Positions 1 to 3,158 of a stretch of DNA of 3,158 bases are shown here, piece after piece. Every line of letters starts with the position of its first letter. The first letter of the stretch is position 1. Where the stretch lies: contig JAYUUO010000219.1 in the NCBI GenBank assembly GCA_043754515.1, positions 1 through 3,158 on the forward strand. Reading direction: 5' to 3'. Position numbers: made by a program. Source of the DNA: Armatimonadota bacterium. Its GTDB lineage: Bacteria > Armatimonadota > Armatimonadia > Armatimonadales > Armatimonadaceae.

Positions 1-3000
1 GAGGCGGACTATTTGGAGGAGATATTGACAGGAGTTGCCCGCGAGGAGGCCGCGGGAAATCGGACAGAACCTGCCTAACTATGATGCAATCGCCCTAGGT
101 GGCCAACCCCGACCGCCCGACCCAACAGTTTTAGATGCGCTCGCCCTAAGAGGCCCTAGAACATGCTCCCTCAATCCCGTTCCGCGAGCAGGTATCGGTT
201 GCTGATCGCTTTGAACGAGAGGCGACCGGCGAGTGTCGCGCTGAACGTCTCCGCGCGCGGGCGGATGACGACCCCTTCCCGCTCGTTCTTTGTGCCAGGG
301 TACTTGCCCTCGGCGAGCGCGAGTAGCTCCTCCTGTGTGTGCGCGAACGCGTCGCCGGTCTCGACCGTCTCTACCGCCGTCAGCCCGGCGTCCGCGAGGA
401 ACGCGCGGGCGGGGTCGTGGTCGAGGTAAACGCCGCGCGTCATGTCATACACGTTGAACACGAACAGCGCGGGTTCTGCCAGCGCGAGCGGGTTCTTCTG
501 GATGCCGGGGCCGACAATCTCGCCCTGGATGGCGAGGTGTGGGTTCCGTCGCAGGACCGCCTCAATGTCGTACTTGCGCGCCATATTCCAGTATGCATTG
601 CCGCCGTCGCGCACCGACTGGTTGCGGCTCGCGGCGTGGAACTCGCCCGTGCGCGGATCAATCACGAACGTCGCCGAAGTGCCGTCGTACTTGAGCGTGA
701 TGGCGTACGGCAACCCGCGCGATTCGTCCAGCACCCTGGGGACGCTCTGGACGCGCATTTCGTCAGTCTTCGGCACCATCGGCGGGAACGGGCCGCGCCA
801 CTCGCCGCCATTCGCGGGCGGGGGCGGCTCGTACTTGCCCACGCCGAGTCGTTCCGTCAGGTCGTCGCCTTCCGTCGGCACGCCGACTTCGGGGAACGCC
901 GGGAGGGGGAGGAACAGGCCCTGTGACAGCGCGCCCCGTAGCCGCATGGTGCGGATGCGGAACTTGTCCGGGCGCGCGATCATGGCGTCGTCGGTCACGA
1001 CCTTCGGCGTCCACAGGAAGCGGAACCGCTCGTCGTCGGGCGGCACGGCGTCAATCTCCAGGAAGATTCCCAGGTCGCCGGGAACGAACTCGTTCTTTTT
1101 GACGACGCATTGCCAGCCGTTGATACGGACCAGTTCGATGGCGTCGGCGTTCGGGATCGGCTCGATAGAAAGCACCGTCTGCGCGCTGGCGATTTTTCGT
1201 TGCATGGTTGTCTAACTAACCGCTCTCCATGAGCCAGTACACGTGTCAGTATCCCCGGCAGGAATCGAACCTGCAATCTCGACGTTCGAAGCGTCGCGCC
1301 CTATCCGTTGGGCCACGGAGACTTATTGTAGCCGATAGCACCCGCCCATGAATAGCGAGTGCCTGGCGCGGAAGGGCGACGGACGGGAGTCGAACCCGTG
1401 GTTTCTTCATGCACAGTGAAGCGTCTTTACCACTTGACTACCGCCGCCATAGAGTTACCAACCGAAACGAACCGATGGAGCGTCGGGGAGTCGAACCCCG
1501 GTTTAGACGTTGCAAGCGTCCCGTCCTCCCACTGAACGAACACCCCCTGACCACGTGAACACCACCAAGTACAAAGCGGCGGGTCGGATTCGAACCGACG
1601 CGGGCGATAACGCCGACAGTTTTGCAAACTGTTTCCTTCGACCACTCGGACACCGCCGCTTAATTTGCCGGACGCATACCAGCACTCGAACACCGATCCG
1701 CGGACTAAGAATCGAACTTAGAATCTACTCGTTGTAAGCGAGGGATGTTACCACTACACCATCCGCGGGCACTAACTTACCGATTCGTGGAGCAGGGATC
1801 GAACCCGCGCTCTTCTCGTTCAAAGCGAGAAATGTTGCCAGCTACACCATCCACGAGCACATTGACCGCAAGCGAACCGACTGCAACTCGACCGACTAAA
1901 AAACTGTCCGGGCAGGTCTCGAACCTGCAACCATCACCTTAACAGGGTGCTGTTCTGCCAATTGAACTACCAGACACTAGGGGCGGGAAGCCAGAAACGC
2001 GGATCGGGGCTTCCCGCCGACGAACGACCTACCGACAAACAAGGAGAGCGGGAGACTCGAACTCCACGCGCGATTTCCGCCGCGCGCCCATGCGTTAGCA
2101 CCACCGGTCACGCCCCGCGTGAATCACTCTCCCAGAACGCGGGTTGAAACCCACGTCATCGGCAAAACAAGTACAGTCAAAACTTGTTTTGAAGATTGCC
2201 TACTATGCGAAATGATTTCGCTTGTATAGGCACTTCGTGCCGGACGTCGGGTACCCGCTTGCGGGTGGGACGGATTGATGCGGGCGTCGGAGACTTGCGA
2301 ATTTGTGTGATCTCCTACCTCGCCCCGCTGTGATCTCCCGTCCTCTCAGATCCACTTCTCCTAATACCAACTAAGGAAGGCGGAGGAATCGAACCCCAAA
2401 CGGTCCCCCGTTCGCTCTGTTTTCAAGACAGCCCGCGCCCCCAGACACGATCACCTTCCCCATCTACCGAGTACCCGCGGCGCGAGTCGAACGCGCTACT
2501 TTCGCCTCCGCAAGGCGACGCTCTTTCCGGTGAGCTACGCGGGCCTATTTGGTGCCTCCGGCCGGGATCGAACCGGCAACCATTCGCTTAAAAGGCGAGT
2601 GCTCTGACCTATTGAGCTACGAAGGCACGACGCGCTTGACGGGAGTCGAACCCGCGTTTTCAGAGCGACAGTCTGATGTGCTGACCACTGCACTACAAGC
2701 GCATTTGAACGGAACAAGCGACCGGTGGGGATCGAACCCGCGACCACAGTGTGGAAGACTGTGATGTTAACCACTACACCACGGACGCATTTCTGTTTAT
2801 GTGATTTTTACCGACACCGAAGCGGCTGGCGGGAATCGAACCCGCGCCCTCTGTACGGCAGACAGATGTTGTGCCACTCAACCACAACCGCGTAACAAAC
2901 CCACTAACCGATGCGGACGGAGGGACTCGAACCCCCACAGCAATGAAGCCACGACTTTACAGGTCGCTGGTCTCGCCTATGATCAAGCGTCCGCATATCG

Positions 3001-3158
3001 CACACAAGTATCGCAATGATTGCGTTCAGTAGTCCCGACGAGAATCGAACTCGCGTCCTCACATTGAAAGAGTGATAGCCTAACCATTAGCCGACGGGAC
3101 CTCATAAAAACAAACCGCCCCCGGTTTCACGCGGGTTTTCGCGGAGACCGGGGGCGGT

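Follow-up and report, generated by a model that had tools for sequence, protein, structure and literature searches.

A divergent tRNA gene array of an Armatimonadota bacterium lies behind a codon-matched leader ORF and terminator, suggestive of ribosome-mediated attenuation

The tRNA gene array described here is best read, with a probability of roughly 80%, as a chromosomal, horizontally derived and spare L-array, forming a translation-stress operon gated by codon-matched ribosome attenuators. It lies, together with an RNA ligase gene, in a 3,158-nt stretch of DNA (the window), which is contig C219 (JAYUUO010000219.1) of the 5.13-Mb, 313-contig genome of an Armatimonadota bacterium (GCA_043754515.1; Armatimonadaceae). 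The layout, the codon match, its conservation and the foldable alternative structures were observed and form the basis of this reading, from which we infer leader translation, switching and the trigger. Papers are cited below by their PMC numbers.

All 16 tRNA genes and the ligase gene listed in a preliminary description of the locus were recovered on the minus strand at the same coordinates (Table 1). As had been stated, ARAGORN called 14 of the tRNA genes, and the two Ser genes scored 57.6 and 42.2 bits with the tRNA-Sec model. The range of 50–72 bits given for the Rfam tRNA model also held (50.8–72.2), but for 13 genes instead of 14, the Tyr gene (25.9 bits) falling under the cut-off of 29 bits. 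The gene annotated as tRNA-Sec is indeed a tRNA-Ser(UGA) of the 8/4 type and not a Sec gene; by eye, it has an 8-bp acceptor, a 4-bp T stem, a 6-bp D stem with a tetraloop, and U73. Likewise judged by eye, both Ser genes fit the (8/4) tRNA-Ser type defined in PMC5389517, with an 8-bp acceptor, a 4-bp T stem, a long D stem, a long arm and G73 or U73. The 16 genes are packed into 1.85 kb on one strand, closely spaced and non-periodic, and 15 of their 16 anticodons (all except Ala-TGC) are found elsewhere in the assembly, so that the set has the redundant isodecoders of an L-array. None was copied recently from any other tRNA gene in the genome, in agreement with the earlier account: the contig overlap described below aside, the best off-contig blastn-short matches were no longer than 26 nt, and gapped blastn aligned the Cys gene with the tRNA-Ser(GCT) of contig C150 at 75% over 88 nt. 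Gene order is kept in the relative G025 at 71–97% identity. The array also shows the patchy spread and signs of mobility of an L-array: a short-arm Leu tRNA marker was found in 44 of 401 genomes of the phylum, a different gene lies upstream of the array in G025, and an endonuclease lies inside the array of the relative G001.

Table 1. Features of the locus in minus-strand order from the upstream contig C128 to the ligase gene; the last row is the contig end. Positions are those of the window unless a contig is named.
Feature	Position	Strand	Basis and remarks
Promoter-like motif TTTAGC-N16-GCGATA	C128:3772-3799	+	pattern search; beyond window end
Leader ORF P0001, 63 codons	C128:3817-4008	+	beyond window end; stops 25 nt before hairpin
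Intrinsic terminator directly ahead of tRNA-Glu (attenuator hairpin, U tract)	3104..3158	-	folding
tRNA-Glu(TTC), first gene	3029..3101	-	ARAGORN, Rfam
tRNA-Tyr(GTA), irregular D arm	2910..2995	-	ARAGORN; Rfam 25.9 bits; kept in G025
tRNA-Gly(GCC)	2821..2891	-	ARAGORN, Rfam
tRNA-Gly(TCC)	2717..2788	-	ARAGORN, Rfam
tRNA-Asp(GTC)	2629..2703	-	ARAGORN, Rfam
tRNA-Lys(TTT), sole gene with encoded CCA	2550..2626	-	ARAGORN, Rfam
tRNA-Arg(GCG)	2471..2544	-	ARAGORN, Rfam
tRNA-Ser(TGA), 8/4 type	2374..2460	-	Rfam tRNA-Sec model; stems read by eye
Host genome repeat (MITE-like), inserted between Ser genes	2134..2294	.	40 matches at E<=1e-10 on 35 contigs; depth spike
tRNA-Ser(GCT), 8/4 type, irregular anticodon stem	2042..2133	-	ARAGORN relaxed threshold; tRNA-Sec model 42.2 bits
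GC-rich spacer hairpin without U tract	1978..2018	-	folding
tRNA-Asn(GTT)	1904..1976	-	ARAGORN, Rfam
tRNA-Gln(TTG)	1784..1856	-	ARAGORN, Rfam
tRNA-Val(TAC), 74% alike to Gln gene	1697..1768	-	ARAGORN, Rfam, blastn
tRNA-Cys(GCA), 7/5 body, 16-nt variable arm, U73	1575..1659	-	ARAGORN, Rfam, fold
tRNA-Ala(TGC), G3-U70 retained	1476..1546	-	ARAGORN, Rfam
tRNA-His(GTG), with G-1 and C73	1374..1447	-	ARAGORN, Rfam
tRNA-Arg(TCG), last tRNA	1249..1322	-	ARAGORN, Rfam
ATP-dependent RNA ligase, Rnl5 / DRB0094 family, 344 aa	171..1205	-	TIGR02306, PF09414 + PF21189
End of repeated element common to starts of C47 and C299	1..97	.	~3x depth on 1.3-kb contig

The suggestion that the array might run on beyond the contig was not borne out, since it begins at the Glu gene behind a terminator. 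Bases 3062–3158 are identical to the end of contig C128 (a 97-nt exact overlap), which contains the tRNA-Glu gene as far as its 40th nucleotide, and a public contig covering 2246–3158 bridges the join and extends ~1.3 kb beyond it at even depth. C128 carries, in order, a divergent radC, the promoter-like motif, the leader ORF and the terminator. Given the terminator at its start, this upstream DNA, radC and the even depth, we regard the 5′ end of the array as complete and the locus as chromosomal in character. The MITE-like repeat between the Ser genes is absent from the array of G025. The contig break at the other end is explained by the repeated element there; the idea that contig C160 or C75 adjoins the window was discarded.

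Fifty-eight of the 62 residues of the leader correspond to amino acids carried by the array's tRNAs, against an expected share of 0.67 derived from the genome's long ORFs (P = 7e-7), and Leu, Pro, Phe and Trp do not occur at all. Among the 4012 ATG ORFs of 55–70 aa in the genome, two reach this share and one lacks those four residues, which is presumably the leader itself. Under strict wobble, 54 of the 58 matching codons are read by array tRNAs. Moreover, the indels that separate three orthologous leaders (those of the window's unit, G025 and L134) are multiples of 3. As in known attenuators, this short ORF with product-linked codons is followed by an intrinsic terminator between its stop and the first gene; the hairpin, at -36.3 kcal/mol (z = -5.5, reached by 0 of 200 shuffles), is kept in G025 and L134. 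Rfam at gathering score gave only tRNA matches in 10 leader-bearing loci, with no T-box or catalogued leader RNA. Because the leader consists largely of residues that the array's own tRNAs carry, the spares are probably made only upon ribosome stalling at those codons.

The leader-peptide attenuator and two sister clusters, both absent from the preliminary description, are the most unusual part of the locus. The sister clusters have the same layout and hold the amino acids missing from the window leader. One, on C75, comprises three Leu genes (two of them short-arm) behind a leader with 7 Leu in 23 residues; the other, on C160, comprises Trp, Pro, Met and Phe genes behind a leader that matches in 14 of 37 residues. 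By eye, a leader and terminator precede 3 of the genome's 52 tRNA units, namely these two and the window's, and many of the other units have a TTGACA-type promoter directly upstream.

Sixteen further units, taken from the tRNA lists of four family genomes and from fetched stretches (two named loci included), brought the total to 19; clusters without a visible leader or terminator were excluded (L030, L031, L035, L038, L041-L043, L046-L048, L258-L263, L265-L278). The leader was defined as the first ATG ORF of at least 15 codons within 45 nt of the motif. Matching residues were enriched in all 19 units, with P values of 4e-3 to 2e-9 that are overstated because the units are related and were initially noticed visually; the anticodon sets were compiled manually, with 8/4 Ser genes recognised by eye and the Ile cluster scored for Ile only. 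In each of the five Armatimonadaceae genomes examined, the true pairing of leaders with clusters came first, out of 6 permutations in G000 (this genome), G025, G028 and G029 and out of 120 in G001, although about three independent partitions remain, since G000/G025 and G028/G029 are orthologous. The terminator lies 12–31 nt past the leader stop in 18 of the 19 units; the hairpin chosen for G001_C2, which lies 4 nt beyond the stop, is questionable.

The partition into clusters varies by genus (Ser-Ser-Cys-Gly-His; Lys-Thr-Arg-Gln-Lys; Tyr-Asp-Asn-Gln-Ala-Leu x3; Gly-Gly-Ala; Tyr-Pro; Thr-Lys; Ile-CAT), and leader content tracks it, for example with a core HHSCHSGCSGC before Ser/Cys/Gly/His genes. 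Additional Leu, Thr and Arg(TCT) genes are present in the G025 array, whose leader contains 5 Leu and 5 Thr residues along with an AGA codon, compared with no Leu, 2 Thr and no AGA in the window leader. An Ile leader with ATA and ATT codons precedes Ile-GAT and an ambiguous CAT tRNA, and the ATA points to the latter being Ile2. Two units speak against a strict match: the G001_C7b leader has 7 Arg before a cluster without an Arg tRNA, and under strict wobble only 8 of 14 matching codons are read in G028_C83.

The match was re-tested independently in 30 loci among the listed matches to the short-arm Leu pattern, using a motif-free mechanical rule. These comprised 13 ORF + terminator units (4 of them repeats of earlier units), 13 single or paired housekeeping-type loci and 2 arrays, all without a terminator, and 2 loci that were too short; 7 of the 9 new units, from three families, reached P < 0.05. 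The rule misses L323, in which a longer out-of-frame ORF is chosen and a Leu-rich ORF follows the motif, and L327, in which a gap of 700 nt splits the cluster; in L320, the ORF that passed is not in the frame of the motif-proximal ORF. Among 60 viral loci, the same rule identified 12 units, of which 8 are distinct and 6 of these 8 have P < 0.01; 18 viral arrays had no unit within the DNA examined and 11 were too short. Arrays of Pseudaquabacterium, Rhizobacter, Longimicrobium and one unclassified record have an ORF and terminator with no enrichment (P = 0.16–0.82), comparisons of little power since these tRNA sets are broad and partly cut. A metagenome scan by terminator pattern found two or more tRNAs at 0 of 120 loci among the matches listed, which were unrelated terminators. 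Overall, the layout recurs in two further families and in phages, making three families of one phylum in all.

We also modelled the leader RNAs. With a ribosome placed at the stop codon, the terminator is predicted to form (0.93–1.0) in 18 of 19 units, the remaining one having a mis-picked hairpin. When the final 60 bases of the leader are accessible, the 5′ arm of the terminator pairs with upstream sequence ahead of synthesis of the 3′ arm (0.53–1.0 versus 0–0.51 in those 18 units). Fold energy lies below that of 60 shuffled leaders each in 18 of 19 units, with z <= -2 in 11, and pairing of the arm with the coding region beats 95% of shuffles in 7 of 19, the window unit not being among them. 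In the window unit, arm pairing is 0.66 versus 0.61 for shuffled leaders and is reached by 21 of 60 shuffles, with a fold-energy z of -2.7. At equilibrium, the terminator prevails in most units (0.96 in the window unit). Duplexes of -15 to -29 kcal/mol between the leader 3′ end and the terminator arm, drawn by eye without a control of their own, occur in 22 of 22 loci, and matched changes on both strands were seen by eye in the G028/G029 pair and the Leu group. Collectively, these models support an antiterminator across the set, weakly so for the window unit, and make an RNA switch likely for the unit class as a whole.

The promoter-like motif (TTTAGC-N16/17-GCGATA) has 31 sites, compared with 2 for the reversed pattern; we take its GCCGATA core to resemble sigma-28 boxes, and 38 sigma-factor candidates were counted. 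Seventeen downstream proteins were scanned, 14 of them with Pfam matches. The motif precedes genes for MutS2, RsgA, Thg1, RNA ligase, HNH, two GNATs, DUF7873 and DUF4291, and also unrelated genes (ABC transporter, caspase, WD40, S24, LTXXQ). This set overlaps the Anabaena TrcR regulon (rsgA, rtcB, HNH, GNAT; PMC10272220). Judging from the motif and its neighbours, the array would be tied to a translation-rescue and RNA-repair gene set.

The ligase passes the equivalog threshold of TIGR02306 (173 bits, cut-off 151) and matches the Naegleria ligase 5cot over residues 3–343 (E = 2e-60), with its motif I lysine in KyDG aligned to KlDG. Like DraRnl and NgrRnl, which it matches over its full length, it has an N-terminal OB-like module and a ligase domain, the arrangement of Rnl5 enzymes; it also matches a phage family. 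DraRnl and NgrRnl seal 3′-OH/5′-PO4 nicks in duplexes (PMC4408790, PMC5397189), whereas repair of tRNAs, the putative role of the array ligase, would require end-healing enzymes. Relatives of the ligase (14 matches) occur in 13 of 31 other family genomes, and only in G025 does an array adjoin one; this fits the rarity of the pair that had been claimed, and counts against our reading. A single Arg tRNA lies beside the ligase relative of G019, and the strict motif lies upstream of 2 of 10 stand-alone ligase genes.

The tRNA-Cys(GCA) gene had been presented as a rare, Ser-like tRNA with a long arm. Its fold (7-bp acceptor, 16-nt variable region, U73) was seen as described, and the GCA anticodon and U73 agree with the proposed tRNA-Cys identity. 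Its Ser-like character, by contrast, was not supported. Variable-arm geometry, in terms of unpaired bases, is linked to the tRNA-Ser type; the arm has 1 unpaired base 5′ and 3 unpaired 3′, as in the genome's tRNA-Tyr, whereas the four tRNA-Ser have 1 unpaired 3′. It also carries C2-G71 and U73 instead of the G2-C71 and G73 of bacterial tRNA-Ser (PMC9976931). Nor is the type rare. Long-arm GCA tRNAs are present in G001, G025, G028 and G029, and the pattern has matches at no fewer than 119 genome loci, most of them stand-alone Phycisphaerales genes, as well as at 60 viral loci. Cross-reading by eye of the 44, 53 and 53 tRNAs of three Phycisphaerales chromosomes (G409, G410 and G413, respectively) gave no second tRNA with a GCA loop, so the long-arm type must carry Cys there; G411 has a short-arm GCA tRNA as well.

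Serine charging, with mistranslation of Cys codons, is a very improbable alternative. A long arm is the main SerRS mark, U73 is no bar to serylation of allo-tRNAs (PMC5389517, PMC9976931), and the host has two ordinary tRNA-Cys, making the array's copy dispensable. The gene is also 73% identical to the host tRNA-Ser(GCT) and 69% to Tyr, which settled no ancestry. However, U73 is kept in 136 of 141 distinct tRNA-like long-arm GCA genes, and this conservation, the Tyr-type arm with C2-G71, GCA and U73, and the three chromosomes with a sole GCA tRNA all argue for cysteine. Most likely, the array's long-arm tRNA is an oddly shaped but ordinary, cysteine-charged tRNA. Like selC*, it is a long-arm Cys tRNA with U73; unlike selC* (PMC5389517), it has a plain 7/5 fold, neither tRNA-Sec-like nor with an 8/4 acceptor branch, and no selB* or cysS* adjoins it. 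Our literature search found no description of a 7/5 long-arm tRNA-Cys, although subscription journals and supplements (Mukai tables) may list such genes. The type is a further class II family, and a genetic code change by it is improbable.

According to the reading that we prefer, control would operate in two layers. The shared motif would co-control the array with translation-rescue and RNA-repair genes. RNA polymerase would then first copy the short ORF, the codons of which specify what the downstream tRNAs carry. A ribosome reaching the stop would cover the leader 3′ end, so that the terminator folds and transcription ends; a stall, caused by short or damaged aminoacyl-tRNA or by slowed translation, would let the freed 3′ end pair with the terminator 5′ arm, and the tRNAs and ligase would be made. 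The spare set would be divided into modules with their own sensors: 13 amino acids (window), Leu, and Trp/Pro/Met/Phe. A point against this reading is that plain amino-acid starvation is not cured by more tRNA. A tentative and somewhat less than even prospect is that three to five attenuators tile most of the genetic code, survey the tRNA pool by sensing the loss of particular tRNAs, and yield divergent replacements and RNA ligase. Anticodon nucleases, whether from toxins, phage or abortive defence, are one possible cause of such loss, which would bring about codon-specific stalling; the nuclease may miss the divergent replacements.

Alternatively, the leader could, like the wblC/whiB7 uORF, sense general ribosome slowing by antibiotics, cold or toxins, with the codon match a relic of earlier phage or plasmid control that no longer sets specificity. 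Leaders of 63–90 codons sample most amino acids, the regulon resembles the antibiotic-induced TrcR and WblC regulons (PMC10272220, PMC7157823), and drugs that target the ribosome induce the array of Anabaena (PMC8421152). Nevertheless, we consider this unlikely as a replacement for the preferred reading, given the sharply matched leaders of small clusters (Leu; Ile; Ser/Cys/Gly/His) and the tracking of tRNA gene gain and loss by leader content; as a second input, it is compatible with that reading. Another possibility is that the ORFs are untranslated or non-regulatory and the terminators merely silence a foreign array of cryptic or decaying genes. The irregular Tyr and Ser genes, the inserted repeat and the weak antiterminator of the window unit fit this view, but the codon match, far above chance in all genomes, the indels that preserve the frame, the constant spacing and the order shared with G025 make it highly unlikely. 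Least probable is a phage or plasmid piece binned with the genome, a concern raised earlier by its possible mobile origin: despite the phage-type ligase and the occurrence of such tRNAs and leaders in phages, radC upstream, the 40-copy host repeat inside, the host motif, the flat 25–28x depth with the bridging contig, and the G001 sister clusters on 0.2–1.7 Mb contigs speak against it, even if an older mobile origin of the array is likely.

Multivalent attenuators are known from thr/ilv and pheST. The trp and his attenuators share with the present units an ORF of regulatory codons, a terminator soon after its stop and competing pairing (PMC1183508); the output here, however, is the tRNAs that read those codons and not enzymes, one leader would sense up to 15 amino acids, and several modules tile the code. 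L-arrays and the Anabaena PCC 7120 trn operon resemble the window in being long same-strand arrays of redundant, divergent tRNAs with patchy spread, linked to or co-regulated with RNA ligase, HNH, RsgA and GNAT genes, and in a likely translation-stress role (PMC8421152, PMC10272220). Control of the trn operon involves the repressor TrcR, direct repeats of 9 nt that overlie the -10 box, and a sigma70 promoter (PMC10272220); the motif here differs from those repeats, and the array has a leader, a terminator, modules and an Rnl5 ligase instead of RtcB. The terms 'attenuat', 'leader' and 'terminator' are absent from the available text of PMC8421152 and PMC10272220, as is 'Armatimonad' from that of the main text of PMC8421152. 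In Streptomyces, the WblC/WhiB7 regulon includes six tRNA genes and GNATs and likewise ties uORF attenuation to translation stress, but that uORF gates a regulator gene instead of tRNA genes, and the available text describes no codon match to tRNAs (PMC7157823). We found no leader attenuator before tRNA genes in the literature, although supplements (L-array dataset S1) and subscription journals may list such arrays. The locus joins a known array type and a known attenuation principle in a way not found in print, and does so on the chromosome, in modules and in three families of one phylum.

The regulation of individual bacterial tRNA genes is largely unknown (PMC8421152), and L-arrays have long been regarded as cryptic. 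Feedback of codon speed on the transcription of cognate tRNAs would give them a concrete, testable function and place attenuation on a new class of target. Moreover, leader codons can annotate ambiguous tRNAs, and the small modules would be ready-made codon-specific reporters of tRNA loss.

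Within the leader-bearing tRNA cluster on contig C75 of the genome of the window (G000), sister to the window's array, lie two short-arm tRNA-Leu, and a WGR and ATP-dependent ligase gene comes after the cluster. The ORF that follows the sister cluster on contig C160 is, judging by its motif, integrase-like. A second kind of degenerate tRNA cluster, unrelated to the leader-bearing ones, was also noted in G000 and in its relative G001 (locus L030); both examples lack a leader and are interspersed with other genes. The endonuclease gene inside the G001 array (locus L029) is bordered by a duplicated 5' part of tRNA-Asn.

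Coordinates of tRNA clusters and of an array-borne gene in G000 and G001
Feature	Location	Remark
tRNA cluster with own leader	G000 C75:2080-2359	sister to window's array
tRNA cluster with own leader	G000 C160:1057-1414	sister to window's array
PD-(D/E)XK endonuclease gene	L029:1712-2104	inside G001 array
Degenerate tRNA cluster	G001 C1:1186000-1189100	L030
Degenerate tRNA cluster	G000 C68:48900-49180	

Strongly matched leaders with terminators were found at six phage tRNA clusters (L099, L070, L055, L103, L105, and L052), and the leader match at the Ser/Cys/Tyr/His cluster among them gave P 1e-8. At arrays of other lineages (L132, L140, L172, L148, and L155), an ORF and terminator are followed by a box that resembles the rRNA boxA; the ORF of L155 has a Phe/Gly/Tyr/Pro/Cys/His codon run upstream of tRNAs for such amino acids. 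Family f5 short-arm tRNA-Leu(TAG) (L303-L315), mostly stand-alone or in a Leu-Gly gene and leaderless, are apparently housekeeping. Two family f2 arrays (L324 and L325) enclose an RtcB-like ORF, recognized by eye.

Many Phycisphaerales appear to use a long-arm tRNA-Cys as their housekeeping tRNA for cysteine (L111, L129, L170; G409, G410, G413). The A73-bearing GCA tRNA of locus L150, which sits in a Thr-Tyr-Gly-Thr position, probably reflects either one altered base in a tRNA-Tyr or a fault in the assembly.

Within the window (1697-1856), the gene for Val(TAC) shares 74% identity with that for Gln(TTG), which suggests a duplication in which the anticodon changed. The G000 tRNA list holds no called tRNA-Arg(ACG), CGN codons being read by GCG, TCG, and CCG anticodons; Ile-GAT and a housekeeping Ala-TGC are likewise absent from the assembled tRNA genes.

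The promoter-like motif occurs at 31 sites in G000 and is common to several genes, including upstream of a lone tRNA-Thr(TGT) on contig C121. The genes sharing it probably form a translation-rescue and RNA-repair regulon.
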